From: Candidatus Curtissbacteria bacterium RIFCSPLOWO2_02_41_11
GTDB lineage: Bacteria > Patescibacteriota > Microgenomatia > Curtissbacterales > GWA2-41-24
DNA: 64,000 bases
Reading direction: 5' to 3'
Assembly: GCA_001775055.1 (NCBI GenBank)
Contig: MFBU01000009.1
Span: forward strand, 382-64,381
The translations under genes and the position numbers were made by a program. Positions 2,077-50,510 of the stretch are shown piece by piece (the stretch's first letter is position 1; each line of letters begins with the position of its first letter). The notes under the pieces are model-generated. The model saw only the letters and a program-made list of their open reading frames with translations, did no database searches and was not told where the DNA came from.

Positions 2077-3312
2077 ATGAAGCTTTACGAATTTGAAGGG
2101 CATCGAATTTTGGCAAAAGCCGGGATCGAGAGTCCCTTTTTTATTGTTTGTTCAAGTATTGACGAGGTCAAGCAGGCCAGAAAAAGGCTTAAATTTCCGA
2201 TTGTTGCCAAGGTTCAAGTCCTCACCGGTCGTCGGGGCAAAGCAGGTGGAGTCAAATTTTTTACAAAAGAAAAACAGCTGTTAACATTTGCCAAAGAACA
2301 TTTCGGCCAGGATTTTATGGGCGAAAAGGTGCGTTTTGTTAGTCTTTCCCAAAAAGTTGAAATTAAAAAGGAATATTACATGTCTATTACTTACGATACC
2401 GTCAAAAAACTGCCATTTCTAATTTTTTCTTTTCAGGGCGGGATAGATATTGAAGAAATCAAAAAAAAAGATCCCAGCTTAATAAAAACTTTTGATATCG
2501 ATCCAATTTCCGGCCCAAAAGACAAGGATTTAGCCAAATTCTTTGAGCAGGATAAAACAGTTCTTGCAGATTTTGCCCTACGACTTTGGGATGCTTTTAG
2601 TCGCTATGACTTGCGCCTGATTGAGGTTAACCCGATTGGTTTAACAGCTGATGGTTACCTTATGGCAATCGATGCCAAAATAATTCTTGACGACGCGGGG
2701 CTTTTGCGCCATCGGGATTTGGACATTTTGCCAAAAGGAGCGATTTCGGCAATTCCCACGGATCGTGAGATACTGGCCAAAAAGATTGACGAGGATGACT
2801 ACCGCGGGTCGGCCGGCTCAACTTTTATCGAATTTGACGGGGATGTTGTTGTCTTGGCGTCTGGTGGAGGCGCCTCGCTTTTGGTGATGGATTCGGTGAT
2901 TGATGCTGGTGGACGGCCTGCCAATTACACCGAATACTCGGGTAATCCGCCGGCTGAAAAAGTTCAGAAGTTAACTAAGATTGCTTTGGATCGTGAGGGT
3001 TTATCTGGTTGTTTGGTAGCTGGGGCGGTAGCCAACTTTACTGATATTTATGAGACATTGAGAGGTTTTATTGAGGGATTGCGCCAAGTGCGTCCAAAGC
3101 CAACTTACCCGATTGTGATCAGGCGCGGAGGGCCAAGACAGGAAGAGGCTTATGAGATGATCAAAAAAGTTGCCAGGCGTGAGGGTTTTGATATTCATCT
3201 TTTTGGACCGGAAACGCCGATTTCGGTGGCTTGCCAAAAGATGGTGGAGTTAGCAAACGATTATAAAATTCGGAACCCGAAGCACGAAAGCCGAATCGAT
3301 TCGTATCATTAG
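2077..3312 (+). CDS. ATP-grasp subunit of an acyl-CoA synthetase (ADP-forming), SucC / citryl-CoA synthetase beta-like
   Basis: N-terminus MKLYEFEGHRILAKAGIESP...FPIVAKVQVLTGRRGKAGGVKFF resembles SucC/AclB ATP-grasp N-termini. Start moved to ATG 2077, directly after the upstream stop at 2067-2069; the track ORF from 2029 overlaps the previous gene. Confidence 0.8.
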   Translation: MKLYEFEGHRILAKAGIESPFFIVCSSIDEVKQARKRLKFPIVAKVQVLTGRRGKAGGVKFFTKEKQLLTFAKEHFGQDFMGEKVRFVSLSQKVEIKKEYYMSITYDTVKKLPFLIFSFQGGIDIEEIKKKDPSLIKTFDIDPISGPKDKDLAKFFEQDKTVLADFALRLWDAFSRYDLRLIEVNPIGLTADGYLMAIDAKIILDDAGLLRHRDLDILPKGAISAIPTDREILAKKIDEDDYRGSAGSTFIEFDGDVVVLASGGGASLLVMDSVIDAGGRPANYTEYSGNPPAEKVQKLTKIALDREGLSGCLVAGAVANFTDIYETLRGFIEGLRQVRPKPTYPIVIRRGGPRQEEAYEMIKKVARREGFDIHLFGPETPISVACQKMVELANDYKIRNPKHESRIDSYH

Positions 3313-3378
3313 TATCCATTAGTATATTGGTATCGATGCTAATATACGAATTCATACTAATTATACAAATATAAGTAT

Positions 3379-4272
3379 ATGGCTATTTTGGTTGATAGAG
3401 AAACTAGAGTTTTAATTCAGGGAATTACCGGCCGCTCCGGAGTTCAGGTTACTTCCGAGCTGTTGGATTACGGCACGAAAGTAGTCGCTGGGGTGACGCC
3501 TGGCAAGGGTGGGCAAGAGATAGATACGGTGCCGGTTTTTAATTCGGTTAGTGAGGCGATTAAAACTGTCGGTGAGGTTGATGTGGCGATGGTTTATGTA
3601 CCGCCTCTTTCGGCACACGCAGCGGCGATGGAGGCGATTGAGGCTAAAATTGCGCTGGTCCATATTTTTGTAGAAAAAATGCCGGTTTTCGATGTTTGTC
3701 AAGTTTTATCACTGGCTGTCAAAAATCAGGTTCGGGTTTTGGGGCCGGCCTCGGTTGGTGCAATTTCACCGGGAGAAGGTAAAATCGGCTCGATAGGCGG
3801 GCCGGCTCCAGATAACGTTTTTAGTAAAGGTCCTATTGGCGTTATTTCCAGATCTGGTGGTATGTGTTCAGAATTGGGACTTCTAATTACCAATTCTGGA
3901 TTTGGTCAGTCGACGGTGGTGGGTATTGGCGGCGATTTGATTGTTGGGACAACCTTTTCTGATTTATTGATCGAGTTCGAGCAAGATCGAGATACAAAAG
4001 CAGTTGTCGCTTTTGGGGAAGTCGGGGGCTCAAGCGAAATTGAAGTGGCAAGGTTAATCGAGGAAGGGAAATTTACTAAACCATTTATCATTTTTCTGGC
4101 TGGCAAATTTGCCGAAAAATTACCGCGCGATACCAGTCTTGGCCATGCCGGGGCAATCGTGGGGATGGAGTCAACAATGGCTCAAAAAATTAAGGCATTA
4201 AGAGATGCTGGTGCAATTGTTGCCGAGAATTTTGAGGAAATACCAGATTTAATTAAAAAGGCAGTCGGGTAG
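3379..4272 (+). CDS. CoA-binding subunit of an acyl-CoA synthetase, SucD / citryl-CoA synthetase alpha-like
   Basis: MAILVDRETRVLIQGITGRSGVQ...VVAGVTPGKGGQEIDTVPVFNSVSEA is a typical SucD N-terminus with CoA-binding Rossmann fold and GVTPGKGG motif. Confidence 0.85.
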   Translation: MAILVDRETRVLIQGITGRSGVQVTSELLDYGTKVVAGVTPGKGGQEIDTVPVFNSVSEAIKTVGEVDVAMVYVPPLSAHAAAMEAIEAKIALVHIFVEKMPVFDVCQVLSLAVKNQVRVLGPASVGAISPGEGKIGSIGGPAPDNVFSKGPIGVISRSGGMCSELGLLITNSGFGQSTVVGIGGDLIVGTTFSDLLIEFEQDRDTKAVVAFGEVGGSSEIEVARLIEEGKFTKPFIIFLAGKFAEKLPRDTSLGHAGAIVGMESTMAQKIKALRDAGAIVAENFEEIPDLIKKAVG

Positions 4273-4318
4273 GTAGGTTGGTAGGTAAGGAGGTAATTAG
4301 GTATACTTAAGTTGGAAT

Positions 4319-5056
4319 ATGTCTAAGCAATATAGAACTGCAATTACTACTCATATTGACGGTAAACCCCATGTTTACGGTTATGATTTAAACAAACTTG
4401 CCGGAAATAGCTCTTTTGCCCGTACTATCTACCTTATTTTGAAAGGGGAGATGCCGGACAAAAATTCCGAGAAGATGTTAGACGCGATGCTTTCAATTGC
4501 TATTGATCACGGAGTCGAGCCGGCGTCGGTGGTTGCTGCCCGCAATGTTTATTCGGGTGGCAGTCCTCTGCAGGCGGCGGTAGCAGCAGGGGTCTTGGCA
4601 TTTGGTGAATATCATGGTGGGGCGATCGAGATGGCTATGGAGAACTTTAAGAAGTATCAGCCTTTTGGAGTCAAAAAATTGGTTGAGGATTTTGCCAAAA
4701 CGGGCGTTCGAGTTTCTGGATTTGGTCACCGTCTTTATACTGTTGATCCCAGGACTCAAAGACTTTTAGAACTCGCCAAAGAGTTCGGTTTTTGGGGTAA
4801 ATATGTTAGGTTCGCAGTGGATTTGGAAAGTGAATTATCCAAAGGGGTAAAACTCTTACCTCTTAATATTGACGGCGTTTTTGCAGCACTACTTTTGGAG
4901 ATGGGTTTTAATCCCAAAGTCGGCAAAGGCGTTTTTATTATCGCCAGAACACCTGGTCTGGTGGCCCATGTAGTTGAGGAGGCATTAAGAGAGAAGCCGG
5001 TGAGAAGACTAAATGAAAAAGATATTGAGTATGATGGACCAAGACCGAGAAAATAA
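4319..5056 (+). CDS. citrate-synthase-fold protein, short form (citryl-CoA lyase-like)
   Basis: Citrate synthase signature region SGFGHRLYTVDPRTQRLLELAKEFG (compare GFGHRVYK.DPRA) and an upstream HGG...A-rich segment. At 245 aa it is far shorter than a full citrate synthase and resembles Ccl or the ACL C-terminal domain. Confidence 0.7.
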   Translation: MSKQYRTAITTHIDGKPHVYGYDLNKLAGNSSFARTIYLILKGEMPDKNSEKMLDAMLSIAIDHGVEPASVVAARNVYSGGSPLQAAVAAGVLAFGEYHGGAIEMAMENFKKYQPFGVKKLVEDFAKTGVRVSGFGHRLYTVDPRTQRLLELAKEFGFWGKYVRFAVDLESELSKGVKLLPLNIDGVFAALLLEMGFNPKVGKGVFIIARTPGLVAHVVEEALREKPVRRLNEKDIEYDGPRPRK

Positions 5057-6614: not shown

Positions 6615-6733
6615 ACCAAGCTTCGCTTGGTAATTTTCAATTTCCAATTTTCAATTTCTAATTTCCAAAGTAATCCACGGTGTCAAGTTGGTATCAACAT
6701 CAACCACGCGAGATGTGTAATCGGTTGTAGGCT

Positions 6734-7354
6734 TTAATTTTCTATTGGGGGTCGATGGACAAATCTTTCTAGCTTTCCTTTTAATGTCGATGGTTGTAGC
6801 AATTGATGGATGTTCCTCAAATCTATTACTTCTGAAGTGAGCTCATTTAACCATTGTCGATCAATAGTTATTCCTTGAATTTGTTGGGTAGATTCTGCTC
6901 CAAATAGAAGCGTTCTTCTGGCTGTTAATAACAATGATTCAGTAATTCGTGGGTTTTTGCAAGAGAAGAGTTGTCTAGCTATAATATGGATCAGCAAAGA
7001 ACTGACAGCACTTTTACATGTCCAGCGGACAAATTGTGACTTTCTTTCTGCTGGCCAATCTTTGCCTTCTTGGTTCAAGATGCTGTTTACAAAGTCACGG
7101 AGTTTCTCGTCAAACTTGACCTCCCCGTTTCTATAGTGCTCATACCCCAATTTTTCTTTGATTGGAGCGGGGGCGGGGAAAATACGTTGAAAGTCTTCGT
7201 CAATTTCTAAATCTTTTGTATAACCGTTGACTATTTTATAAACCGTATCGGAAAGTTTTCTGAACCTTTTGGATCCAAGAAAGGCTGACAAATTTTCGAA
7301 AGCAATTTCGCCGATGGCTCTTTCTTGTACCATTTTAGAAGCGGATTTTAGCAC
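6734..7354 (-). CDS. hypothetical protein (206 aa), no recognisable motif
   Basis: Long clean ORF with an N-terminus consistent with a start; the 5' side faces an ~840-bp non-coding region. A REP-like fragment (GGTGTCAAGTTG) lies just downstream at ~6685. Confidence 0.5.
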   Translation of the reverse strand: MLKSASKMVQERAIGEIAFENLSAFLGSKRFRKLSDTVYKIVNGYTKDLEIDEDFQRIFPAPAPIKEKLGYEHYRNGEVKFDEKLRDFVNSILNQEGKDWPAERKSQFVRWTCKSAVSSLLIHIIARQLFSCKNPRITESLLLTARRTLLFGAESTQQIQGITIDRQWLNELTSEVIDLRNIHQLLQPSTLKGKLERFVHRPPIEN

Positions 7355-8222
7355 ATAGGTTTGACTAAGTCAAGCCCTATAGTGTTAATTGGGGAAGAGA
7401 AGAATTTAACAAATTTCTAATTTCTAAATCCTAACTTCTAAAATTTTAGCTTCAATTTATAAAAAATTCCCGCAAAAAAAATATGATAGAGGAGGCGGAG
7501 TAGGGGGTATAGGTTTACACTGAGCGAAAGCGAAGTGATATAGTTTGATACATTTCGTGAAAACGAGAAGAAAAAAAGCGTGAAAAATTGATCAAGCTAT
7601 AGATTATCAACTATAAGGTTTTAATTACACGGCTAAAAGGATATAGTCAGGTATAAATCAGGTATAAATATAGAGGACTATGAGGCTCTTTATCCTCTAT
7701 AAGTTGTCCAATTTGGCAATTTTAGCAAGCGATGACCATGAATGCTAATGGCTAAAGTGCTGTTTTTGAGGGTTTTTGGGGAGGGGGTCTTTTAGGACAC
7801 AATTGACAATTGACATTTAACCTTTAACATTTTTTTCTACATCTTTTGCACCATTACTCCCCACAGAATAAGGGATAATGTTGCCGTCGCCTATGCGTCG
7901 CACAATGATACTTTTGCGACATAGATTGAGGCCGAGAGAGCAGGCGAAGCTCAATTTTGGTTTCTGGTTTCCAGTTTCAGGTTTCTAGTTATATTATTGT
8001 TGTTTCTTTATTTTTGACTTTTAACTTTTAATTTTTAACTTATCCAGTTTGTTCCATTTATCCCCTATTTGTTTTTATTTGCGTATTTTAGATTCTCTTT
8101 GCTCTTAAATTAATTAAAATAATGGTGGGAAATATCTAATTAATATAAAACGGCCGTTAAAAGGGCAATAATAGGCTTGGTGAACTTGAAAAAGCTTGTT
8201 GGAAAGCCTAAAATTAAAACTT

Positions 8223-10918: not shown

Positions 10919-11100
10919 TTAAGGTTATTTTAGCAGTTTCACCCTGATCATGTCGACTTTACGTCAGTTGTTGGTGAAAATAGGATTTGGGACACAGAGT
11001 CGAAGACCCTGAGCGAGTGAAACGAGTCGAAGGGTCGCAGAATTTTGGGGATAGCTTCCCCACTTCTTGATTTTTACTTTGAGAGCGTCGTACAATTGTA

Positions 11101-11156
11101 ACTGACAACTGACAACTGACAACTGACAACTGACAACTGACAACTGACAACTGACA
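11101..11156 (+). repeat. 8 perfect tandem copies of heptamer ACTGACA ending 3 nt before the xerC-like ATG
   Basis: Counted directly: 56 nt = 8 x 7. Spurious ORFs 10959..11150 and 10964..11239 are artefacts of this tract. Confidence 0.9.
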
Positions 11157-11159
11157 AAA

Positions 11160-12914: not shown

Positions 12915-15900
12915 TTAATTTTTGAAGGTTACATACTGATTCCAGGGAAGAATTTTGAGATCGGCGGGTTTTTTGAGGGAAATTGCCTTGACAAAAAGCT
13001 GAGCGGCTTGCATGTTGGCAAGTAGCGGTATGCCAAAGTCAATTGATGCTCGGCGGATTAAATAATCATCATCGAACTCTTTTTTAAAGTAAGGATCAAA
13101 GATATTGATGACCAGATCAATCTTTTTGGCCAAAAGAAAGTCCAGGACATTGGGTTTTTGATGTTCGTGAATTTTATAAAGTTTGGTAACATCAATACCG
13201 TGGTTTTTGAAAAATTGGGCGGTGCCGGCCGTGGCATAAATTTTAAGACCCATTTTAAAAAGAGTTTTGGCGGCTTCTTGGAATTTGATCTTGTTTTCTT
13301 CACCAGCCAGGGAGATAAAGACCGATTTTTTGGGTAAGGAGACACCGGTTGCTATTTGCGATTTTAAATAGGCCTCATAGATATCATCACCAAAACAGGC
13401 GACTTCACCGGTTGAGGCCATTTCGACTCGCAAAATCGGATCTGCGCCTTTGATACGGGCGAACGAAAACTGGGGAGCTTTGACCGCGACATAATCTGGT
13501 CTCTGGTCTCTGGTCTCTGGTCTCTGGTCAATGCCTAGTATTGCTTCGGTGGCTAATTTGGCAAAGTTGATGCCGGTGACTTTAGAGACAAAAGGAAGTG
13601 AGCGGCTGGCACGCAAATTGCACTCAATAACCATTACCCGGTTGTTTTCGGCCAAAAATTGGATGTTGAAAGGACCAGTGATGTTAAGTTCCCTAGCAAT
13701 TTTTTGGGCAATTTTTTTGATTTGTTCAATTGTTTGAGTGTAGAGCTTTTGGGCGGGCAAAACCATACTGGAGTCTCCGCTGTGTACGCCGGCATTTTCG
13801 ACGTGTTCTATGATCGCCTGACATAAAACTTTGCCGTTTTTGGCCACAGCATCGATTTCGATTTCTTTGGAATTTTGATGGAACTGAGAAATAACTACAG
13901 GGTATTCTGCGGAAACTTGTGAAGCAGCCAAAAGATAAGCTTCAAGGTCCTGCGGGTTAAAGGCCACATTCATGGCTGCTCCGGAAAGAACATATGATGG
14001 GCGTACTAAAACCGGATAGCCGATTTTTTGGGCAAAGACAATTGCCTCCCCGACATTTTTAAGTTTGGCCCAAACGGGTTGAGCGATATCAAGCTCGTCG
14101 CAAAGCTTGGAAAATTTGCTTCTGTCCTCTGCCCTATCGATTGAAGTGACTTTAGTTCCTAAAATTGCCAAGCCCCTTTGGGTAAGTTTGGTGGCCAGAT
14201 TGTTGGGGGTTTGGCCGCCCATGGAAACAATTAGGCCGCTCGGTTTTTCTTTGTGGTAAATTTCTGTGATTGTCTCTTCGGTTAATTCTTCAAAATAGAG
14301 TTTTTGGGCCATGTCAAAGTCGGTAGAAACAGTTTCGGGGTTACAGTTGATAATGATTGTCGAAAAATTGCAACTTTCGGCTGTTTGGGCACAAGTGACC
14401 GAACACCAGTCAAATTCGACAGAGGAACCAATGCGGTAAGGACCGGAGCCCAAGACGATAACCTTTGACATTTGACCTTTGACATTTGACCTTTGACTTA
14501 CAACATCATCTGATTCTCCATTGTAAGTCAGATAAAGGTAATTAGTCTCGGCCGGGTATTCGGCAGCTAAAGTGTCGATTTGTTTGACGGATGGATGAAT
14601 GTCGAATTTGTGTCGAAGTTGGCGGATTTTGTCTTTCGTTGAACCCGTTAAAGTTGTTAATCGTTTATCGGAAAACCCAAGTTGTTTGGCTAAAAGAAGA
14701 GCATCACGGCTATTAAAAGTATCAGGGGTACCATGAGTTTTTTGTTTTGAGACTTTGATACTTTTTTCAAAATCGCAGATATTCTTAAGTTTGTAAAGGA
14801 AGAATGGATCGATACCGGTGGCTTGGGCAATTTTTTCGACGGCAGTTTTTTGGCGGATAGCGCGGGCGATGGCAAAAATCCGCCAAGGGGTTGGTTTGGC
14901 CCAGGAAACCTTTGGTGCCTTTTCATCCAAAATTCCCTCAAAACCGATATCAAGCATACGCACGGCTTTTTGAATTGCCTCTTCAAATTTTCGACCGACA
15001 GCCATAACTTCGCCAACCGATTGCATCGAGGAGCCGATTTCTGTTTGGCTTTTTAAGAATTTGGCAAGATCCCATCTGGGGAACTTGACGACCAGATAAT
15101 CAAGAGCCGGTTCAAAGCAGGCAATGGTTTTTTTGGTAACCGAGTTTTGAAGATCGGTTAGTGAGTAGCCCAGCGCCAATTTGGCGGCAATATAGGCTAA
15201 GGGATAACCAGTGGCTTTGGAGGCCAATGCCGAGGAGCGGGAAAGACGGGCATTAACTTCGATGATGCGGTAGTCGAGGCTGGAAGTGAGAGATGAGAAG
15301 TGAGAAGCTGGATCCCACTTCGGATTTGGGTTCAGAGCGAATTGGATATTGCATTCGCCGACAATACCCAGGTGTCTAATGACTTTGATAGAAATCTCAC
15401 GAAGCTTGTGATATTCGAAGTTGTTAAGGGTTTGGGAAGGAGCAACGACGATTGATTCGCCCGTGTGGATGCCCATTGGGTCGATATTTTCCATGTTGCA
15501 AACAGTGATGCAGTTGTCAAATTTGTCTCTGACTACTTCATATTCAACCTCCTTCCACTTATCGAGATATTCCTCAATTAAGATTTGGCCAACTTTGGCA
15601 AGAGCCCGAGTGGCAATTTCCACAAGTTGTTTTCGATTTTGAGCCATACCGCTGTCTTGACCGCCTAGTGAAAAGCCGCCTCTTATCATTATCGGGTAGC
15701 CGATTGTGGTGGCGACAGCCAATGCTTGTTTGACGGTTTTAACTGCCTGACTTTGAGGGCACTTCAGGTTAATTTGATCTAAGGTGTTGACAAAAAGTTG
15801 TCGGTCTTCAGTCTTCTCGATTGTTTCAATGGATGTTCCTAATACTTCGACTTGGTATTTTTGAAAAATCCGATCCTTGGCCAGTAATAGACCGCAATTT

Positions 15901-17324: not shown

Positions 17325-19997
17325 TTACCTCTTTTTAACTTTTTTGACAACCCTAGTTTTAGTTTTTGGTTTGGCTTTTGGCTTTGCCTTTTTGGCTTTA
17401 ATCTTGAGTTTGTGTTTAGGCCTATTCTTGACTATAGATTTAGTTTTTGCTTTTGGTTTAGGTTTTGGCTTTTGTTGGGTTTTCGTTTGGGCGGCTACCT
17501 TTGAAGATTCGGGTTTTACAGATCCGTTTTCTACCTCCTCATCCTCCTTCTTTTTTTGAATGACAGTGGTGGCTGCGACTTTGTCGCCTACTGACAAGCG
17601 CATAATAATTACGCCCTGAGTATCCCGAGTAAGCCTAGGAATAGACCGTAGAGTTGTCCGCATGACCTGGCCTTTTTGGGAAGTCAAAATTAAGGCTTCA
17701 TCGGCCTTAGTTAGAATTTGGGCGCAGACAATCTCACCGGTTTTTTCGGTTAAGTTTGCCGCTTTTACACCGACGCCACCCCGAAGCTGCAATGGCCAGG
17801 CCAAAACCTGGGTTTTCTTACCAATTCCTTTATCGGTAATGACCAAAAGGTCAGCTTTTACGTCTCCTTTATCAATTACATCCATGCCGATTAGTTCATC
17901 ATTCGGTTTTAGTTTTATGCCGCGAACCCCCATGGTATCCCGAGCCATTGGTCGGACATCTTTTTCAGCGAATTTAATGGACAAGCCGTGCTTGGAAATC
18001 AGAAAAATGAGGTTGTCGCCGGCTGTTAATTTAGCCCAGCGCAGATGATCGCCGGAGGCAAGTTTAATAGCGATTATGCCTGATCTTCTAATCGATTCGT
18101 ATTGGGAAATTGCGGTTTTTTTGACAACGCCGTTTTTGGTTGCCATCAGCACATATTTGTGATTACTGGTCATTTGAGTCTTTTGTTTTTTAACTGGCAA
18201 GATCGATAGAACTTTTTCATTTTGTTGCAGGTCTAAAAGATTGACAATTGCTACCCCTTTGGAAACTCTGGAACTTTCAGGGAGATCATAGACTTTAAGC
18301 TGAAATACGCGGCCTATATTGGTAAAGAAAAGAAGGTTGTCATGGGTGTAGGCGGCAAATAGATGGGCAACGGTGTCCTCTTCTTTGGTGGTGATACCAG
18401 AGATACCCTTGCCGCCGCGGCGTTGAGTGCGGAAAGAAGAAAGATCTTGTCTTTTGACATAACCGCCCACGGTAACGGTAACGATAGTCGATTCATTGGC
18501 AATTAAATCCTCTTCGGAGAATTCACCGATTTTTTGTTTAAACACACGGGTGCGCCTGTCATCGCCGAAACGCTCTTTAAGCTTTAAAAGTTCTCCTTTG
18601 GCGACTGTTAAGATTTTTTCAGGGTGACTCAAGAGATCTTCCAAATAGGTAATTTCCTCAAGAGTCATGGTCAGTTCTTCCTCGATTTTTTGCCGCTCAA
18701 GACCCGAAAGCCTTTTGAGCTGCATATCCAGAATCGCCAGAGCCTGGACTTCGGTTAATTTAAATTTTTGCATTAGGTTGACTTTGGCGACTTGAGGATC
18801 CTGGCTTTTTTTAATGGTTTCGATGACGGCATCAATATTGTCAACGGCAATTTTTAAACCTTCCAAGATATGAGCTCGTTTTCTGGCTTCATCGAGTTCA
18901 AACTGGCTTCTTCTCTTAATGACTTTTTGGCGGTGTTTAATAAACTCACTCAAGATCATTTTGAGGGTTAGTGTTTGGGGAGTGCCATCAACAAGAGCCA
19001 CCATGTTGACCGGGAAGGATTGTTGCAGAGAGGTATGCTTGTAAAGATTATTTAGAACCGATTGCGGGCGGGCATCGCGCTTAAGTTCGATAACAATGCG
19101 CATACCTCGACGGTCGGATTCATCGCGAAGATCAGAAATCCCTTCCAGTTTCTTATCCTTGGCAAGCTCGGCAATTCTGGTGACAAGCGTTGCTTTGTTT
19201 ACCTGATATGGGATTTCGGAAACGGTTATTTGGAATTTAGCGCCTTTTGTTTCTTCAATATCGGCTTTGGCGCGCATTAAAATTTTACCGCGACCGGTGG
19301 CATAGGCGGCTGTAATTTCGGAAATGTCATAGATCTGGGCAGCAGTTGGGAAATCCGGTCCCTTAATATGTTCCATTAAATCCTCGACAGATAATTCCGA
19401 GTTGTCGATTAAAGCGCAGGCGGCATCAATGACTTCTGCCAAATTATGAGGCGGAATGTTGGTTGCCATACCGACGGCGATACCGGAGGCGCCGTTAATT
19501 AAAAGGTTTGGCAAAAGCGCCGGTAAAAATACCGGCTCTTTTAAAGTGCCGTCGAAATTCTCGGTAAAATCAACGGTTTTTTTATCGAGGTCGTAAAGCA
19601 GAGTTTCGGTAATGAGAGCCATGCGAGTTTCGGTGTAGCGCATAGCAGCCGGCGGGTCACCATCGATTGAGCCAAAGTTGCCTTGGCCATCGATTAACGG
19701 GTAACGCATGGAAAAGTCCTGAGCCATGCGCACCAGCGCCTCATAGACCGGAGCGTCGCCATGGGGATGGTATTTGCCTAAAACCTCACCGACAACTTTG
19801 GCGCTTTTGGAGTAGTGGGCACTGTGAGTTGTGCCCATTCGCTGCATGGCGTAGATGATTCGTCGGTGAACCGGTTTTAAGCCGTCGCGAACATCTGGCA
19901 GCGCGCGGGAAACAATAACCGACATAGCGTAGTCGAGATACGACCTTTGCATTTCATCTATAATTTCGACTTGCTGGATTTTGCCGATATCAGCCAT
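17325..19997 (-). CDS. gyrA: DNA gyrase subunit A, with lysine-rich C-terminal tail
   Basis: [21 protein letters not shown] and the rest of the GyrA N-terminus. ~50-aa KPKAKPK-type tail at the C-terminus. Confidence 0.95.
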
Positions 19998-23255: not shown

Positions 23256-23399
23256 TGCAAATTTGATTTTACAGTGATTGGACTAATATTTCCAATTTAT
23301 ATCCGAGATTTGTTATGATCAAATTAGAGTCAAGATATGAGCTAGCGTTTAGCGTCTAGCCATTTTATGGCACCTAAAAGTAAGGAGAACTGAATTATC

Positions 23400-25151: not shown

Positions 25152-25247
25152 GGGTATCACGGGCGCCAAGGGTATCACGAGTACCACAGGCTTAAAACAA
25201 AAAGCTCTTGATACTTTTGGTACATTTGATACCTTTGGTACTCTTAA
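25152..25247. repeat. copy A of a ~95-nt dyad-symmetric intercistronic repeat family (GGGTATCACGAG...AGCTCTTGATAC...GGTAC arms)
   Basis: Shares >60% identity and the same arm order with the copies at 37605, 40886 and 50511. Confidence 0.7.
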
Positions 25248-25254
25248 CATAAAC

Positions 25255-26319
25255 ATGTCTATCCAAGAGTATTTAGAAATTGTTGTTAAAAAGGAAGCTT
25301 CAGACCTTCATTTGGTTACCGGAATGCCGCCAATGGTGCGTATTGACGGGCAACTATTACCTGTTACCGGTTCTTTCTTGACACCAGAGGATACGGAAAG
25401 CCTGGTTTTTGAGCTTCTCTCCCCTGAGCAAAAGGAGATGCTTTTGGTTAACAGGGAGCTCGACTTTTCTTTTGCTCTTGGTGAAGTGGCTCGCTTTCGC
25501 GTCAATGCCTACTTTCAGAAAGGTTATCTGGCGGCAGCTTTAAGGCTGATTCCTTCATACATTAAGACGATTGAAGAACTAAACCTGCCCAAAATTTTGC
25601 ATAATTTTGCTAGACTTCGTCAAGGATTTATTTTGATTACAGGACCGACCGGTCACGGCAAGTCAACGACTTTGGCTTCGGTAATTAATGAAATTAACCA
25701 GACACGCGCGGTACACATAGTGACGATTGAAGATCCGATTGAGTATGTTTACCCTAAAGGCAAATCCCTAATTTCCCAAAGAGAGATGCATCTGGATACT
25801 CATTCATGGGAAATATCTTTGCGATCGGCTCTTCGAGAGGATCCTGATGTGGTTTTGGTTGGCGAGATGCGCGATTATGAAACAATCGCCTCGGCAATTA
25901 CCATCGCCGAGACTGGTCATTTGGTTTTTGCCACTCTGCACACCAATTCGGCTGCCCAGTCGGTCGACCGAATAATTGACGTTTTCCCCCAAAATCAACA
26001 GGCCCAAGTCCGGTTGCAACTTGCCGAGACAATTGCAGCTATTGTTTCGATGAGGTTGGTTCCAGCAATAGGTGGTGGAAGATTGCCAGCCGTAGAAATT
26101 CTTTTGACCAGTGGTGCAGTGCAGACGGTAATTAGAGAGGCCAAGAGTCACATGATTGACAATATTATTCAAACTTCGGGTGAAGCAGGCATGATTCTAC
26201 TTGATGCCTCTTTGGCCTATTTGGTTCGTTCTGGCAGGGTATCTCTGGATGTTGCCAAAAGTTACTGCATTAGGCCGGAGGAATTGGATCGCTTAGTGGG
26301 AAACAACACTAGTTCCTAG
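25255..26319 (+). CDS. pilT: type IV pilus retraction ATPase PilT
   Basis: ITGPTGHGKSTTLAS Walker A, AIRNLIRE-like segment VIREAKSHMIDNIIQTS. Confidence 0.92.
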   Translation: MSIQEYLEIVVKKEASDLHLVTGMPPMVRIDGQLLPVTGSFLTPEDTESLVFELLSPEQKEMLLVNRELDFSFALGEVARFRVNAYFQKGYLAAALRLIPSYIKTIEELNLPKILHNFARLRQGFILITGPTGHGKSTTLASVINEINQTRAVHIVTIEDPIEYVYPKGKSLISQREMHLDTHSWEISLRSALREDPDVVLVGEMRDYETIASAITIAETGHLVFATLHTNSAAQSVDRIIDVFPQNQQAQVRLQLAETIAAIVSMRLVPAIGGGRLPAVEILLTSGAVQTVIREAKSHMIDNIIQTSGEAGMILLDASLAYLVRSGRVSLDVAKSYCIRPEELDRLVGNNTSS

Positions 26320-26343
26320 CGACTAGTGACTAGCGTCTAGATT

Positions 26344-27558
26344 ATGTCACTTTACCGTTATACAGCCAAGGATTTAAGCGGCAAAAAGTTTACCGGCGAA
26401 GTCGAAGCAATTGACGAGAAAGCCTTGGTAACCACTCTTCAAGGCGAAGGGCTGGTGCCGATTGAGGTTAGAGAACGCAATGCCCAAGGTTCTATAACTA
26501 TTGAGAAAGTCTTGCCTAAGACTGGCGGAGTTTCTTCCTCTGAAATTGTGGGTTTTACCAGACAGCTTTCGACAATGATTTCAGCAGGTCTTCCTTTAAC
26601 CGATGCCTTGGTAATTTTGGAAAAACAGGCTAAAAATAAGCATTTTGCGCGGGTACTTGCAGAAGTTGTGGCTGATGTCGAAGGCGGTACGTCGCTTTCG
26701 GCGGCTTTTGCCAAACATCCCAGAGTTTTTGACATTATCTATGTGAAACTGGTTGAGGCCGGTGAAACCGGCGGAGTTTTGGATAAGATTTTAAATAAAC
26801 TGGCCGAGTCTTTAGAGAAAGAAAGGGAATTTAAGGCGAAAACCCGGGGCGCTTTTATTTATCCGGCAATTGTGGTTGTGGTTATGATTATCGTAATGAG
26901 TATTATGATGATTTTTGTAATCCCCAAACTGACCAGTCTTTACACTGAAATCGGAGCAGCCCTGCCGCTTCCAACGAGAATTTTAATTGTCATGTCTAAT
27001 TTCATGAGGTCGTTCTGGTGGCTTTTAATAATGATGGTAATAGCCGGTACTTATAGCTTTAGGACATATTCCAAAACAGTCAGGGGCGGCCAGATTGTCT
27101 CAAAATTTGTTTTATGGTTGCCCATTTGGGGAAAAATCCGCAAAACCTTAATTTTAGCTCAATTCACGCGCACGCTTGGACTTTTAATCGGTAGTGGAAT
27201 CCCAATTATTACTGCCCTAAAAGTGGTGGCCGATCTTTTGGCCGCTCCTACTTATAAGGAAGGTATTGAATTTGCAATTTCCCGGGTGGAGCGTGGTGCG
27301 CCGCTTTATCAACCGCTGGCTGCCAGTCCCGATTTTCCGCCGATTATCGGGCAAATGATCAGAGTTGGTGAGGAAACAGGTAAGATGGACGAGGTCTTGA
27401 TTAGACTTTCTGTTTACTTTGAAGCGGAAAGCGAGAATTTGATTCGAAATTTAACAACGGCACTCGAGCCGGTAATTTTAGTGATTTTGGGTGCGGGCGT
27501 TGGTGTTTTAGTGCTTTCTATTATCCTGCCGATCTACAATTTGACAGCGCAATTCTAA
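26344..27558 (+). CDS. pilC: type IV pilus platform protein PilC (GspF family)
   Basis: Two GspF repeats and three transmembrane segments. Confidence 0.9.
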   Translation: MSLYRYTAKDLSGKKFTGEVEAIDEKALVTTLQGEGLVPIEVRERNAQGSITIEKVLPKTGGVSSSEIVGFTRQLSTMISAGLPLTDALVILEKQAKNKHFARVLAEVVADVEGGTSLSAAFAKHPRVFDIIYVKLVEAGETGGVLDKILNKLAESLEKEREFKAKTRGAFIYPAIVVVVMIIVMSIMMIFVIPKLTSLYTEIGAALPLPTRILIVMSNFMRSFWWLLIMMVIAGTYSFRTYSKTVRGGQIVSKFVLWLPIWGKIRKTLILAQFTRTLGLLIGSGIPIITALKVVADLLAAPTYKEGIEFAISRVERGAPLYQPLAASPDFPPIIGQMIRVGEETGKMDEVLIRLSVYFEAESENLIRNLTTALEPVILVILGAGVGVLVLSIILPIYNLTAQF

Positions 27559-27580
27559 CTGGAAACTAGAAACTATAAAC

Positions 27581-27946
27581 TTGGAACCAGACACAGTAAA
27601 TTTTAGATTCTTAAATTTTAAGGTCTACAAAGACGCAAAAAAATTTTATCATGAGATTGTTAGGATAACTGCTAACTTTCCTAGGCAATATTGGGAGTTG
27701 GGAGACCAGATGAGAAGAAGCGCTCTTTCTGTAATTCTTAATCTAGCAGAGGGTTCAGCCAAGAAGTCAGACAGAGATTTTAACCGTTACATTAAAAATA
27801 GTTTAGGGTCAATAAATGAGTGCGCAGCGGGTATTGACGTGGCTTTTGGCGAAAAACTTGTAAATGAGGAGGTTTTTAAAAATCTAATGATTAAAGCGTC
27901 AGAAATCGCAAATCAATTAGGCGGGTTCTCAAAATCTTTGAGGTAA
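27581..27946 (+). CDS. four-helix-bundle protein (23S rRNA IVS protein / Avd-like family)
   Basis: FRFLNFKVYKDAKKFYHEIVRITANFP...RRSALSVILNLAEGSAK...SLGSINEC fits the TIGR02436/Avd pattern. TTG start. Confidence 0.75.
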   Translation: MEPDTVNFRFLNFKVYKDAKKFYHEIVRITANFPRQYWELGDQMRRSALSVILNLAEGSAKKSDRDFNRYIKNSLGSINECAAGIDVAFGEKLVNEEVFKNLMIKASEIANQLGGFSKSLR

Positions 27947-28124
27947 CTCGAAACATTAAACCTTAAACTTGAAACCATAAACTGAACAGAGACTAAGTGG
28001 TGGTAGCTTGTGAAGTATTTCATGTTTCCAGTTTATTGTTTCCTGTTTCACGTTAGGTATCTTGACAACAGTTAACTTATCCCCAATACTTAAATAGAAG
28101 AGGAAATTTGAAAAGTTTATCCTC

Positions 28125-28659: not shown

Positions 28660-29115
28660 ATGTGTCGGCAACATGGATTTACATTAATCGAGCTTTTGAT
28701 TGTTGTTGCAATCTTGGGAATATTAGCCTTGGTGGCGTTCATGGCAATTAATCCGGCAAAACGCCAAAATCAGGCCAAAGATGCTAGGACTAAAGCTGAT
28801 ATTGACCAAATAGCCACTGGGCTCGGAGTCTACTTTACCACGCATCAACCACAAACCTACCCCGTGGATCTTTCAGAGGTTGTCAATAACAAAGATCTTA
28901 AATCTTTACCTACCCCTCCTAATAGTGGTACATACGGGAGTGGATACGCGGCAGTTGCCGAGGATGGAGGGACGTGTGACGGAGGTACGATTGTTTGTAG
29001 CCGGGCAAAGCTTTCATGGACCCTTAATGACCCTCAAAATGGTAATAGCGTATGGTGTTGGCAATCATCAACCGGCAAAGCACAACCTCTTACTCCCGTT
29101 TTGTGCACCCCTTAG
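28660..29115 (+). CDS. type IV pilin paralog
   Basis: MCRQHG|FTLIELLIVVAILGILA; C-terminal WCWQSSTGK segment shared with the preceding pilin. Confidence 0.9.
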   Translation: MCRQHGFTLIELLIVVAILGILALVAFMAINPAKRQNQAKDARTKADIDQIATGLGVYFTTHQPQTYPVDLSEVVNNKDLKSLPTPPNSGTYGSGYAAVAEDGGTCDGGTIVCSRAKLSWTLNDPQNGNSVWCWQSSTGKAQPLTPVLCTP

Positions 29116-29152
29116 TTGCGCCAGTTTTTAAATTTGGCTATTCTTAGATTTA

Positions 29153-29920
29153 GTGGTTTTATTTCTTATTCTCTTTTTTATTCTAGGAACCGCCGTTGGC
29201 AGTTTTTTGAATGTGGTTATTGACAGGACTACTCAAGGCCAGTCGATACTCGGCAGGTCTTATTGCGATTACTGCCGCGCGACGCTTGGGGTAGTCGATC
29301 TTATTCCCATTTTAAGTTTTACGGCGCTTTCTGGCCGATGCCGGCATTGTCGAAAAAAACTTTCATGGCAATATCCAATTGTAGAGACGGTGACAGGCTT
29401 ACTTTTTGTTCTCTCATTTCTTATATTGACAGTAAGTGGCCAGCTTACGATTACTACTCTACTCTACTATTTTTTTCTCATATCAATTTTAATCGTGGTG
29501 GCGGTTGTTGATTTTAAATTCTCGCTAGTACCGACAACTTTGGTTTTTTTGGCATCACTGCTCGCGCTTTTTTATAATTATTTTTTTCTAACATCAGGTC
29601 AATTTGTCCAAAGTGTAGCGGCAGCATTTGGCACAGCTGTTTTTTTTCTGGTGATTGTTATTTTAACTCGCGGCCGGGGCATGGGCGAAGGCGATGTGGT
29701 GCTTGGTTTTTTGATCGGCATGGTTTTGGGCCTAAAAGAGTCGGTGCTGGCCATATTTCTGGCGTTTTTAATAGGAGCAATTATTTCACTTTTTCTTATA
29801 ACACTTGGCAAAAAGCACTTTGGTCAGACTGTTCCCTTTGCCCCGTTTTTGTCTTTGGGATTTTTGATTAGTCTTTTTTGGGCAAAGGAGATTATTAACT
29901 GGTATTTAATGCTATATTGA
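29153..29920 (+). CDS. pilD: prepilin peptidase (A24 family) PilD
   Basis: GSFLNVVIDR...CDYC...CRHC zinc-binding N-terminus and a polytopic membrane domain. GTG start. Confidence 0.88.
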   Translation: MVLFLILFFILGTAVGSFLNVVIDRTTQGQSILGRSYCDYCRATLGVVDLIPILSFTALSGRCRHCRKKLSWQYPIVETVTGLLFVLSFLILTVSGQLTITTLLYYFFLISILIVVAVVDFKFSLVPTTLVFLASLLALFYNYFFLTSGQFVQSVAAAFGTAVFFLVIVILTRGRGMGEGDVVLGFLIGMVLGLKESVLAIFLAFLIGAIISLFLITLGKKHFGQTVPFAPFLSLGFLISLFWAKEIINWYLMLY

Positions 29921-29924
29921 TGTT

Positions 29925-30539
29925 ATGAGGAAGGGTTTTGGTCTGATCGAATTTATGATCGTGATTACGGTTTTTGGAATCGCGACTGCCGTTATCACCG
30001 CCTCATTTTTAACATTTGAGCGCAATCAACGCCTAAAAAGCGCCGCCAGTATGTTAAAAAATGACATCAGGCTAATTCAAAACAAGGCACTCGGTGGGGA
30101 TAAAAGTACACCTAACTGTTCCAAAGTAACCGATCCTGCTCCGGTTTTGGTTGGTTGGTACCTGAACGTGGTTAAAGGTTCGAGTGAGTATACGTTAAAT
30201 AGCGATTGTAGAAATAAAGATAGTATTGAAGACCCTGATATTCTAATTAAAATTGTTTCATTGCCACGGGGGGTTAAAATTAGCGATGTACAATACGGGA
30301 ACAGTTCTCCTGTTTCAAAGGATGCCATCAACGTTTTATTCCAACCTTTAACACATAACACATCATTCCATGATGCTTTGCTGGCAATTACTCCCCCTTT
30401 TCTTGATAATTCGGGAAATCTAAAAGATCTATTGGGTTCATTACCTCAGGAAATGCTTAGTATTATTTTAGCCGGAGACCAAGGTGGAACTTATAAAGTT
30501 ATTGTCCAGCCTTCAGGAGAAGTTAATGAGCAAAAATAA
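29925..30539 (+). CDS. pseudopilin/minor pilin with prepilin-type N-terminus
   Basis: MRKG|FGLIEFMIVITVFGIA. Confidence 0.75.
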   Translation: MRKGFGLIEFMIVITVFGIATAVITASFLTFERNQRLKSAASMLKNDIRLIQNKALGGDKSTPNCSKVTDPAPVLVGWYLNVVKGSSEYTLNSDCRNKDSIEDPDILIKIVSLPRGVKISDVQYGNSSPVSKDAINVLFQPLTHNTSFHDALLAITPPFLDNSGNLKDLLGSLPQEMLSIILAGDQGGTYKVIVQPSGEVNEQK

Positions 30540-31017
30540 GCCAGATACCAGATACCAGATACCAGATACCAAATTTCTCGGTCAATCTCTCATCGAGGTT
30601 GTCATCGCCATGGCTGTTATTGTCGGTTTGGCTGTGGCTTTGGTGACTACGACTTTGGTTGTCCAGAAAGCATCAAGGACGGCCAAAAATAATACTCAGG
30701 CTACGAAGTTAGTCCAGCAAAATATCGAGCAGGTAAGAGTTTATAGGGACCGCAAAGGCTATGCTTCTATCCCCGATGGAGGTAGCTGTTATACACTATC
30801 CTCAGGTGATCCAGATCCCCTTAGCTGGTTCTTTTCTGCTTCTTTTGACTGTTCTGGAAGTGGGCAGCAAATTACTTTGGGTAAGACCAATTTCGACAGA
30901 AAAATAAAGATTGAAACTGATGCTAGTACAAAAAAGGTTACTGTTACCGTTTCTTGGACAGATTCTGGCGGAACCCAGTCGGTTAGTAATCAAACCATTC
31001 TATCTTCAGGCCTCTAG
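30526..31017 (+). CDS. minor pilin-like protein; leader region contains 4x heptamer CAGATAC
   Basis: ...KFLG|QSLIEVVIAMAVIVGL prepilin-like. ATG 30526 preferred over the track start 30484. Heptamer tract at 30541-30568. Confidence 0.65.
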   Translation: MSKNKPDTRYQIPDTKFLGQSLIEVVIAMAVIVGLAVALVTTTLVVQKASRTAKNNTQATKLVQQNIEQVRVYRDRKGYASIPDGGSCYTLSSGDPDPLSWFFSASFDCSGSGQQITLGKTNFDRKIKIETDASTKKVTVTVSWTDSGGTQSVSNQTILSSGL

Positions 31018-31061: not shown

Positions 31062-31739
31062 ATGCCCTTCCATAAAGTATCTAGTATCTGGTATCTAGTA
31101 TCTGGTATTAAATATACTAAATACAAAATACTAAATACAAAATACTGTAAAACCAAAGGCTTTACCCTCATTGAGCTTTTGGTTGTTTTGGGGATTTTGG
31201 CGGCGGCTGTTGGGGCTTCCATGATTTTTCTTACCTCTGTTTTAAAAGGGACTAATCAGGCTAATGTGACGGCCGAAGTTAAGCAAAACGGCCAAGTAGT
31301 TTTAGATTCACTGGAAAAACAGATTCGTGGTGCTACTGATGTGGAGTGTGCCAATAGTGCGGGGAACTCCGTTGATTGTTCCGATGCATCTGCTTCTCTT
31401 AAATACTTAAAGCTTGTGAGATCGGATGAAGACCCGTTACATATCGGGTGTTTTTTGGATAGTCTACCCAAAACAGAAAATGGCTGGATAGGCATTGTTG
31501 AGTCAGCTCTAGCTTATCCTTCATCAACAAACTATGTATCGGTTACAAATAAAGATGCTATTTCAGGAGTTGATATTCAGGATTGTAATTTTAAGGTATC
31601 CTCTGCATCTTCTGGAACAACTTCGCCATCGGTAGTTTCCATTAGCTTTATAGTCAATCAAGGAATTGACGCACCTTCACGCGCGGATTTTTTGGCTAAT
31701 GCTAAATTCGAGACGACGATATCGCTGAGAAACTATTAA
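31062..31739 (+). CDS. pilin-like protein with unusually long, repeat-encoded leader
   Basis: ...CKTKG|FTLIELLVVLGILAAA. The 33-aa leader is encoded by heptamer/14-mer tandem repeats at 31080-31145. True start uncertain. Confidence 0.65.
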   Translation: MPFHKVSSIWYLVSGIKYTKYKILNTKYCKTKGFTLIELLVVLGILAAAVGASMIFLTSVLKGTNQANVTAEVKQNGQVVLDSLEKQIRGATDVECANSAGNSVDCSDASASLKYLKLVRSDEDPLHIGCFLDSLPKTENGWIGIVESALAYPSSTNYVSVTNKDAISGVDIQDCNFKVSSASSGTTSPSVVSISFIVNQGIDAPSRADFLANAKFETTISLRNY

Positions 31740-32618: not shown

Positions 32619-32647
32619 CAACTGACAACTGACATTTGACAAAAAAT

Positions 32648-40985: not shown

Positions 40986-40990
40986 TTTAT

Positions 40991-50506: not shown

Positions 50507-50510
50507 AATG

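Follow-up and report, generated by a model that had tools for sequence, protein, structure and literature searches.

How did short tandem arrays of many different heptanucleotides come to be scattered over a stretch of a bacterial genome? The question arises from 64,000 nt of Candidatus Curtissbacteria bacterium RIFCSPLOWO2_02_41_11 (contig MFBU01000009.1, positions 382-64,381, forward strand), hereafter called the window. An earlier note on this DNA had described slightly degenerate tandem 7-mers throughout its intergenic segments, had likened them to the STRR heptamers of heterocystous cyanobacteria, and had suspected a common generating mechanism. Our analysis reveals a period-7 excess that extends across Curtissbacteria, and we regard the arrays, with moderate confidence, as the product of a lineage-specific, period-7-biased local tandem duplication of the slippage type, tolerated where it is harmless.

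Period-7 arrays were called with Tandem Repeats Finder (TRF) at a score of at least 30, and 100 dinucleotide-preserving shuffles served as null. The window contains 29 such arrays compared to 1.74 +/- 1.25 per shuffle (maximum 7), and 22 of them comprise at least 2.7 copies. Six are perfect (3.7-8.3 copies or two-plus copies), e.g., those at 11100-11157, 13495-13529, and 30541-30571. Set against the neighbouring periods, a comparison suggested in the earlier note, the excess is particular to period 7 (29 vs. 1.7): 4 arrays were observed vs. 0.5 in shuffles at period 6, and 4 vs. 2.4 at period 8. Period 14 yields 10 arrays vs. 0.5. A lag detector (+1/-2 scoring, threshold 12, periods 2-15) returned 12 segments at period 7 and 9 at period 14; periods 9 and 11 yielded a single segment apiece, and the remaining periods of this range yielded none. 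AT-richness was controlled by separate shuffling of every intergenic segment, and the excess persists under this control, with z=6.1 for lag 7 and z=4.0 for lags 14 and 21. The outcome that the earlier note had named as refuting, no period-7 excess over other periods after control for AT content, did not occur. Lags 8 and 9 are likewise elevated (z 4-4.5), to which a separate period-9 hairpin family contributes.

All eight heptamer arrays listed in the earlier note were recovered by TRF, with positions right to a few bases. Their description as intergenic holds for the majority: with genes placed according to the gene tables of the strains, 11.0% of the intergenic nucleotides lie in arrays vs. 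0.59% of the coding ones, a 19-fold difference, and 19 of the 29 arrays are intergenic. However, the remaining ten lie inside open reading frames (ORFs), three of them in carB.

The gene content is, as had been supposed, unrelated to cyanobacteria. It includes the housekeeping genes carA/B, gyrA/B, recG, pheST, infC-rpmI-rplT and murT/gatD, a type IV pilus operon, and ATP-citrate-lyase-like genes. GyrA is 77-86% identical to metagenome-assembled genomes (MAGs) labelled Candidatus Curtissbacteria, and CarB is listed as Candidatus Curtissbacteria in NCBI and UniRef. The host is thus a member of the candidate phyla radiation (CPR) and not a cyanobacterium. Groundwater metagenomes of the Rifle aquifer are the source of identical or near-identical contigs, one of which (L092) is 100% identical over 20.8 kb.

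Related genomes show an equal bias. In 17 loci of other Curtissbacteria species (289 kb), TRF found 80 period-7 arrays, where 7.8 were expected; the observed and expected numbers are 8 and 3.8 at period 6, 17 and 7.2 at period 8, and 24 and 10.8 at period 9. Ten loci of other Patescibacteria contain 13 period-7 arrays vs. 4.8 expected. Approximately 1 Mb of Clostridia, examined as a control, contains 47 vs. 17.2 but does not share the bias: its real excess is found at periods 6, 9, 12, and 15, multiples of three that reflect coding repeats. A second copy-number population (3.5-5.5 copies, 25-38 nt) is unique to period 7; periods 6 and 8 end at a background of 2-2.5 copies, and two-copy arrays occur at background rates for all of periods 6-8. 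The period-7 bias is a lineage-wide trait of Curtissbacteria. No prior report of heptamer arrays in Curtissbacteria or the CPR was found in the searchable literature.

Units, placement and turnover of the arrays

The arrays are diverse in sequence. Approximately 70 canonical units occur among 109 arrays, and no unit is found more than four times. Units are AT-rich (29.5% GC), with CAACTGA as the commonest. Compared with GC-matched genomic heptamers, the 4-mers CTAG (9 vs. 0.9 expected) and TGAC/GTCA (15 vs. 4) are enriched, as are ACTA/TAGT. A shared GAAAC/GTTTC core was considered as the defining feature of the units but is unsupported, given that CTAG, GTCA and ACTA are enriched and AAAC is not. 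Single-linkage clustering of the units gave no informative groups. In the 25 imperfect arrays, 116 unit positions are invariant compared to 96.4 +/- 2.4 expected (z=8.3), and variants cluster at few positions. Several arrays are perfect at period 14 and thus show a higher-order A-B-A-B pattern.

Their placement relative to genes is tight. In nine of the 19 intergenic arrays, the end lies 6 nt or less from a start codon; several arrays begin within 4 nt after a stop codon, and four occupy whole operon spacers (pilT-pilC, pilC-IVP, 32618-32648, and infC-rpmI). A significant inverted partner within 150 nt exists for about five of the 29 arrays (27951/28018, 31076/31114, and 50811). Such inverted pairs are predicted to fold as ladder-like hairpins (z=-2.2 and -4.3), and solo arrays are essentially unstructured. 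A general role as hairpin arms was dismissed on these grounds.

Arrays also affect gene calling. In the pilin-like genes at 30484-31017 and 31062-31739, the starts of the longest ORFs read through arrays, and prepilin N-methylation motifs begin directly behind the arrays, at ~30580 and 31149; the true starts of both genes probably lie downstream of the arrays. Here, heptamer arrays inflate ORF calls. In MAG annotation, arrays cause wrong start codons and apparent frameshifts, with carB called as two genes in two assemblies.

Arrays lie in the essential carB gene, of which the ORF is intact (1087 aa) and matches TIGR01369 end to end. All three carB arrays (Table 1) are translated, site 1 as SHFSSLTS and site 2 as the linker of the two homologous halves. 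Compared with nine other Curtissbacteria CarB proteins (67-75% identical elsewhere), the three array sites are exactly the three hypervariable, length-variable places. In comparison with solved structures, sites 1 and 2 represent insertions of 14 aa and 7 aa, respectively, relative to human CPS1, and site 3 aligns to a variable loop. A CarB fragment that is 96% identical (P0009) has a different site 2, which is 9 aa longer. Coding arrays are read through all three frames, with a super-period of 21 nt or 7 aa. They show that a core enzyme can take up repeats of a non-triplet unit without loss of frame, which give rise to loop peptides with a 7-aa period.

Heptamer arrays underlie the variable carB sites in many Curtissbacteria species. 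The peptide GNWKLEIGN, i.e., (GGAAATT)n read in all three frames, is found at site 2 of L015 and site 1 of L010. Site 1 of L005 consists of (GACCAGA)x3 followed by inverted (CTGGAAN)x4, and site 2 of L004 of (AGTTCAC)x4 followed by (AACCGTC)x4. At site 3, the window has a perfect (GACCAGA)x5 array, L001 an imperfect array (TACCAAA/TACTAAA/TACCAGA), and L010 and L015 non-periodic sequence; in five species the site-3 segment measures 57 nt, irrespective of whether it contains an array. A metagenome scan between the conserved site-3 flanks returned one match, with the same allele as the window. In-frame palindromic inserts are present in carB of L001, L005, and L010. The L001 insert is a palindromic 91-nt cassette with heptamer-array arms, which occurs at two carB sites with 87% identity.

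Turnover among strains was studied by alignment of 30 same-species contigs (98.7-100% identity, most >99.6%) to positions 202-62649 of the window. Across the ~62 kb, where up to 10 assemblies of 99.6-100% identity could be compared in each region, indels of more than 2 nt are confined to two events in arrays, of exactly 7 nt and exactly 14 nt. In L084, one TCTGGTC unit is missing from the perfect period-7 array at 13495 (site 3), and in L083 exactly 14 nt are missing from the perfect period-14 array at 14461 (site 2). Both losses split carB into two called ORFs, 584 + 512 aa in L083 and 935 + 168 aa in L084. The L083 split falls exactly between the two homologous halves, and the L084 split detaches the C-terminal MGS-like domain. 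Provided that these losses are genuine, slippage in arrays would offer a way for genes to split at domain linkers; naturally split carB genes exist in some archaea and in Aquifex.

L081 and L089 carry a wholesale replacement of the site-3 array, (GACCAGA)x5, by (ATGTCAA)x5. On the coding strand, ...ACTAGGCATT(GACCAGA)x5TTATGTC... becomes ...ACTCGAGAAA(ATGTCAA)x5AGATTACGTC..., a gain of 3 nt, which results in a CarB of 1088 aa with the loop KMSNVKCQMSNVK. In each of the five units, the swap alters four of seven positions (G>T, T>A, T>A and C>T), and it also alters ~10 flanking nt; L081 shows no further single-nucleotide polymorphism (SNP) within 1.9 kb to one side and 7.4 kb to the other. When rotated, the new unit ATGTCAA equals GTCAAAT, a unit of the site-2 array 1 kb away.

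In L098, the beginning of orf204 contains an in-frame insertion of 82 nt, absent from the window and composed of (GGAAACA-like)x5, a 12-nt loop and (GTTTCAA)x4; the product has 227 aa instead of 204. In the same strain, a block of ~1.4 kb (pilD and orf204; window 29052-30488) is only 86-91% identical, compared to 99.9% from 30488 onward. This block is a recombination import with its right end ~50 nt before the (CCAGATA) array at 30541, which is kept in L098 next to the divergent block. In the more divergent L099 (98.6% identical), the (AATTTAA) array at 38250 is absent and replaced by unrelated 143 nt with a GC-rich hairpin. Relative to window 38243-38844, L099 also lacks the orphan gene 38406-38765.

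Intergenic arrays, including the 8.3-copy array at 11100, are identical in all near-identical assemblies (10-20 per array). Among 687 SNP sites, none falls into array DNA except in the swapped array, a weak comparison as most SNPs stem from few divergent blocks. An apparent 51-nt insertion in L093 turned out to be a scaffold gap of Ns. The arrays are potential strain markers in groundwater time series.

On the level of species, turnover extends to intergenic spacers. The pilT-pilC spacer contains (NNACTAG)x3.6 in the window, (CACTAGN)x4 in L001 and (AAATTTT)x4 in L012, and measures 18-30 nt with no array in several species. The pilB-pilT spacer carries a hairpin of two inverted short-period arrays in most species, with entirely different sequences: in L003, (GTAGNNN)x4 faces (AACTACT)x9, L004, L010, L015, L016, and L002 have versions of their own, and the version of the window is of period 9. 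In four species, this spacer comprises only 2-10 nt. Conserved canonical intrinsic terminators exist in these genomes, e.g., after gyrA, and thus the hairpin arrays are not simply the terminator form of this lineage.

Origin of the arrays

The observations to be accounted for are the period-7 excess, its restriction to the lineage, the diversity of units, their position relative to genes, the in-frame arrays, the exact-period indels, and the local replacement of arrays. We infer slippage or template switching as the generator. A lineage-wide mutational bias would make tandem duplications in a 7-nt register from arbitrary AT-rich seeds, through slipped-strand mispairing or short template switching in replication or repair. 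Arrays would typically grow to 3.5-5.5 copies (25-38 nt), would later change by single or double units (7 or 14 nt) and by homogenisation, and would be lost or overwritten much faster than their flanks accumulate point mutations. Purifying selection would remove harmful arrays, such that survivors would be expected where they do little harm, i.e., in operon spacers and 5' leaders, often directly at start or stop codons, in intergenic regions between divergent or convergent genes, and in proteins at surface loops or linkers. Survival in coding sequence would need a net length that keeps the frame and a unit without stop on the coding strand. Inverted pairs may result from the copying of an array to the opposite hairpin arm or from the lengthening of both arms of a small stem-loop. 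Arbitrary units, the period-specific excess, partial terminal units, A-B-A-B patterns, exact-period indels, and variable orthologous sites all point to a local and sequence-independent duplication. As no fold is predicted for solo arrays, selection for structure need not be invoked.

Several findings weigh against such a duplication. One-unit slippage poorly explains the wholesale (GACCAGA)x5 to (ATGTCAA)x5 swap with clean flanks, and the L098 hairpin insertion is likewise awkward for it. Every single +/-7 step within carB is a frameshift, and the L083 and L084 losses each stem from a single megahit contig, where assembly collapse is possible. The invariance of the 11100 array in 10 assemblies indicates that arrays are not hypermutable on this timescale. 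Furthermore, the constant 57-nt site-3 segment looks more like overwriting than expansion, and the L001 cassette at two carB sites implies that sequence was copied from one site to another and did not grow in place. These findings are compatible with a process resembling cassette insertion or gene conversion, or with the shuffling, by short recombination tracts, of alleles that diverged elsewhere. We see a minor but appreciable chance that an active process, other than replication error, writes or overwrites tracts of ~25-50 nt with perfect heptamer arrays at permissive sites. The strictly local site-3 exchange and the constant 57-nt loop segment would be its footprints, and, if true, it would constitute a built-in generator of linker or loop peptides, spacers, hairpins, and gene fission points.

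Rather improbable in our estimation is an origin of the arrays from small non-autonomous mobile palindromic cassettes, comparable to miniature inverted-repeat transposable elements (MITEs), REPINs or Rickettsia palindromic elements (RPEs), and possibly mobilised by a RAYT-like Y1 transposase. The L001 cassette at two carB sites, the 82-nt inverted-array insertion of L098, the inverted partners of about five of the 29 arrays, the inverted-array hairpin at pilB-pilT in most species and a RAYT-like gene with REP-like hairpins on either side (Table 1) are consistent with it. However, ~70 unrelated units without common termini or core do not fit copies of an element, and most arrays are solo and unstructured; the pilB-pilT hairpins share no sequence among species, the RAYT-flanking motif is unlike any array unit and not dispersed in the window, and the RAYT match itself stays below the NCBIfam cut-off. 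The common generating mechanism favoured in the earlier note over one mobile repeat agrees with the ~70 units in 109 arrays, differing units in orthologous spacers, exact-period indels, and A-B-A-B patterns, with the qualification that a minority of arrays do act as copied palindromic cassettes. About equally doubtful is a selection of the arrays as cis-acting elements, i.e., multivalent RNA/DNA-protein sites, unstructured leaders, or frame-independent stop insulators. Nine of 19 intergenic arrays within 6 nt of a start, four filled operon spacers and the lack of structure in solo arrays agree with such a role, as do the tendency of a 4-nt core to be invariant with two or three variable positions, the enriched stop-containing motifs (CTAG, TGAC/GTCA), the fact that a stop in a 7-nt unit occurs in all three frames within three repeats, and array DNA that is SNP-free except for the swapped array. 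Yet without a common unit, a single binding specificity is impossible; in sister species the same spacers lack arrays and can be as short as 2-10 nt, and arrays also occupy convergent 3'-3' spacers and protein loops. Core invariance is equally accounted for by duplication of variant units, and the SNP comparison is confounded by the divergent blocks. Arrays may serve cis regulation secondarily, but such a role cannot account for the unit diversity, for orthologous spacers without arrays, or for arrays in protein loops.

A dedicated templated process that writes arrays at defined sites (reverse transcriptase, telomerase-like, similar to diversity-generating retroelements (DGRs), or targeted gene conversion from donor arrays) appears highly improbable. 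The strictly local site-3 replacement by a rotation of the site-2 unit, the constant 57-nt site-3 segment, and an Avd-like gene flanked by arrays would suit it, but the gene tables covering window 202-62649 contain no reverse transcriptase, and the substitutions of the swap are not adenine-specific, unlike those of DGRs. The site-2 array alternates two units and thus is no direct donor, and the swap could also stem from recombination over a short tract with a strain whose flanks are identical. Next to no weight falls on an explanation by low-complexity, AT-rich intergenic sequence or by faulty assembly. The units are indeed of low GC content, and two-copy arrays remain at background for periods 6-8; however, neither dinucleotide nor per-segment shuffles reproduce the signal, periods 6 and 8 have no comparable excess, and over 20 assemblies, made independently with different pipelines, contain the same arrays with identical bases.

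With 11% of their scarce intergenic DNA occupied by arrays, these streamlined ~1-Mb genomes represent a compact system for the study of heptamer bias. Given the weaker signal in sister Patescibacteria, the idea of a polymerase footprint is open to a direct test by comparison of polymerase and repair genes among genomes. Array exchange between near-identical strains is a route to novelty in protein loops and possibly to gene fission.

Arrays and neighbouring features of the window

Arrays of the window are collected in Table 1 together with further elements mentioned in the text.

Table 1. Heptamer arrays and selected other features, with window coordinates in nt
Position	Strand	Feature	Location	Remarks
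6632-6668		(AATTTYC)x5.3	convergent spacer after DUF5656 gene	solo; better at period 14 (91%); unstructured, z=-0.6
7412-7441		(AATTTCT)x4.3	78 nt upstream of orphan ORF 6734-7333 (-)	called by TRF
7799-7832		ACAATTG x2.4 + ACATTTA x2.9	890-nt divergent intergenic region	abutting short arrays
7958-7990		(TGGTTTC)x4.7		GTTTC core
8012-8041		(TTTTAAC)x4.3		
11100-11157	+	(AACTGAC)x8.3	stops 2 nt short of the ATG of XerC-like recombinase	perfect
13495-13529	-	(GACCAGA)x5 (TCTGGTC on forward strand)	carB variable site 3	perfect; in-frame translation DQRPETRDQRPD
14461-14497	-	(GTCAAAG/GTCAAAT), A-B-A-B	carB variable site 2, inter-domain linker	perfect at period 14; translation SQRSNVKGQMSK
15283-15307	-	x3.6 array	carB variable site 1	part of 14-aa insertion relative to human CPS1
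26316-26340	+	(CTAGYGA)x3.6	entire pilT-pilC spacer	overlaps stop codon and reaches to 3 nt short of ATG
27557-27581	+	(AACTNGA)x3.6	spacer from pilC to Avd-like/23S_rRNA_IVP gene	spacer filled
27581-27946	+	23S_rRNA_IVP/Avd-like four-helix-bundle gene	type IV pilus operon, pilC to pilins	bracketed by heptamer arrays
27951-28049	+	(AAACNNN)x4.6 ... (GTTTCNN)x4.6		inverted pair, 35 nt apart, ladder hairpin; pairing z 5.2/6.9; fold -25 kcal/mol, z=-2.2
30541-30571	+	(CCAGATA)x4.4	begins 1 nt past stop codon, before pilin-like gene	perfect
31076-31146	+	(AGTATCT/GGTATCT)x4.7 + (ATACTAA/ATACAAA)x4.7		inverted pair, 5 nt apart; each perfect at period 14
32618-32642	+	(ACAACTG)x3.6	fills spacer, stop 32618 to start 32648	unit as in 11100 array
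38250-38275	-	(AATTTAA)x3.7	6 nt upstream of rpmF start	perfect
43567-44214	-	RAYT-like Y1 (IS200-family) transposase ORF	hairpins of ~55 nt at 43512-43566 and 44250-44305	single
47307-47330	-	x3.3 array	inside pheT	imperfect
50811-50842	-	(AACTTTA-like)x4.6	fills infC-rpmI spacer	
56191-56220	-	(AGTGAAT)x4.3	near N-terminus of orphan 282-aa ORF	in frame
60881-60907	-	(AGTTGTC)x3.9	within GATase_3 (GatD-like) gene	in frame; reverse complement of 11100 unit
25152-25254, 40886-40990, 50507-50610		period-9-armed hairpin, ~100 nt		three copies

The array at 7412-7441 matches an array within the L001 carB insert with 93.5% over 31 nt. It belongs to the divergent intergenic region 7334-8222, which is unusually long (890 nt) and contains five arrays and an 11-nt direct repeat (7647-7669). 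Rfam revealed no known RNA in this region nor in any array. The adjacent orphan ORF 6734-7333, without match in Pfam, NCBIfam or PHROGs, is bracketed by two AATTTCY arrays of the same orientation. Compared with window 7461-7574, the end of the L089 contig shows 20 SNPs in 100 nt and 107 unalignable bases, which suggests a structural variant beside this ORF. The centroid structure of (AACTGAC)x8, the unit of the array at 11100-11157, is empty, and that array is unchanged in 10 strain assemblies. The inverted pair at 31076-31146 has a pairing z of 7.2 and a fold z=-4.3, and a prepilin N-methylation motif follows 2 nt downstream.

The 'CTAGCGT' array at 23342 is probably a conserved GCTAGC-type palindrome or hairpin and no true heptamer array. 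In window 23256-23399 and the orthologous regions of L001-L015, a conserved promoter-like block (TTTCCAATTT...TTGTTATGATCAA) is found upstream of pilB, followed by this palindrome.

The period-9-armed hairpins share a mean column identity of 79% (GGGTATCAC.../...TTGATACTT). A folded copy reaches -33 kcal/mol (z=-6.05), and no match was found in Rfam. They may constitute a small family of dispersed hairpins, regulatory or mobile, that is separate from the heptamer arrays.

The RAYT-like ORF scores 24 bits against Pfam Y1_Tnp (cut-off 23) and 44 bits against NCBIfam REP_Tyr_transpos, i.e., below the cut-off of 80. The motif of its bracketing hairpins (CCGnAGGTGTCAAG...CACCCTTGGGGTG...CACCTGCGG) has one weak partial copy, at 6678. 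A link of this transposase to the arrays was rejected, the motif being neither dispersed nor array-like. For the Avd-like gene, the start is disputed among gene callers (78 vs. 121 aa), and no reverse transcriptase is nearby in the gene tables. A DGR was likewise discarded: only the Avd-like gene is present, with no reverse transcriptase in the gene tables and no A-bias.

At positions 2077-5056 (+), three adjacent genes encode ATP-citrate-lyase-type domains (ATP-grasp_2 + Citrate_bind; CoA_binding + Ligase_CoA; Citrate_synt C-terminal domain), an unexpected metabolic content for a small CPR genome. The 3' end of gyrA (17325-17560, -) encodes a lysine-rich low-complexity tail of ~77 aa with TTTTGGC-type repeats of period 6-7 (TRF 17363-17488), and the length of the GyrA tail varies greatly among Curtissbacteria species. 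The holB-pilB and carA-gyrA spacers of L010 carry a MITE-like element with terminal inverted repeats (GTCATCCTGGA...GATAGGATC...TCCAGAATGAC), which is absent from the window.

Comparison with known repeat systems

Heptamers were recognised in 2007 as over-represented among the tandem repeats of bacteria. As that survey is cited in later work, heptamers are the commonest unit of long simple sequence repeats (long SSRs; 5-11-nt units) in many bacteria, with repeat-rich genomes scattered among them, and polymerase slippage was proposed, ~7 nt being the DNA length held by the polymerase; coding regions favour units divisible by three (Mrazek, Guo & Shah 2007, cited in PMC4692102, PMC4679880). The survey predates CPR genomes, and in contrast to the coding preference cited from it, Curtissbacteria place 7-nt units in frame in carB.

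In form, the arrays resemble the STRR of heterocystous cyanobacteria (Nostoc, Anabaena, Calothrix), as the earlier note proposed: these are tandem heptamers of several copies at many mainly intergenic loci, with several units per genome of ~41% GC. Known STRR units are CCCCAGT (STRR1), TTGGTCA (STRR2), and CAACAGT (STRR3). The likeness ends at the sequence. Neither the STRR1-3 units nor TAACTGA, GGGAATC, or GGGGATT occur in tandem in the window and the 17 Curtissbacteria loci (353 kb). Without any published STRR unit in tandem, and in an unrelated phylum, the arrays are not the cyanobacterial family by sequence. They are also shorter (mode 4-5 copies) and include no G-rich or quadruplex-forming class. 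Next to the start codon, a counterpart is found in Nostoc recO, where STRR lie against or overlap the start (bioRxiv 10.1101/2022.06.06.494920). Arrays in frame in a core enzyme and replacement on strain level are not described for STRR in the accessible literature.

TAACTGA repeats of marine Beggiatoaceae, some cyanobacteria and Bacteroidetes consist of 2-6 copies located few nt upstream of starts or overlapping the upstream stop, and a leader or cis-acting role was proposed for them in Beggiatoaceae (MacGregor 2015, PMC4679880). They occasionally occur in ORFs, at protein peripheries; 169 sets were described, and related heptamers are rarely repeated (PMC4679880). The proximity of Curtissbacteria arrays to starts is similar, and CAACTGA differs from TAACTGA by one base. 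However, one unit dominates there, while none of the ~70 units dominates in Curtissbacteria. GGGAATC repeats of Xanthomonas comprise ~4 units, in part as inverted pairs, and vary between sister species (Rehm 2015, PMC4692102). Theirs is a single G-rich, quadruplex-forming unit compared to the AT-rich and diverse units of Curtissbacteria.

The perfect tandem repeats of Borg extrachromosomal elements are pervasive in intergenic as well as genic DNA, have independent origins, evolve fast within populations, and are flanked by partial repeats; as in Curtissbacteria, they add new, probably disordered, segments to proteins (PMC9879509). Borg units are longer and of varied length, and the genic ones are all divisible by three, whereas one non-triplet period dominates in Curtissbacteria.

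RPEs are in-frame palindromic insertions with a family consensus. Along this line, palindromic elements stand in frame in conserved genes of Curtissbacteria (carB of L001, L005 and L010; orf204 of L098), and a RAYT-like gene with flanking REP-like hairpins in the window recalls REPIN/RAYT systems (PMC3116915). Copies of RPEs and REPINs share a consensus, in contrast to the Curtissbacteria hairpins, which share the architecture of periodic arms and not the sequence: only the two L001 carB inserts are alike, and the other in-frame inserts are unrelated. There is no dispersed family of near-identical palindromes as in REPINs: array and hairpin sequences differ from locus to locus, except in the period-9 family and the L001 pair. 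With regard to phase variation, the intergenic arrays are invariant in 10-20 assemblies, and two unit losses frameshift carB in single megahit contigs.

Tandem 7-nt units of at least three copies, present at many loci beyond chance and mostly intergenic, are the generic features of the heptanucleotide class, and the arrays show all of them. Thus, the Curtissbacteria arrays belong to the known heptanucleotide long-SSR/STRR-type class, in a new (CPR) lineage. What they add to this class are exact-period losses, wholesale replacement of an array, the in-frame gain of a hairpin array, and arrays in all three variable loops of CarB.

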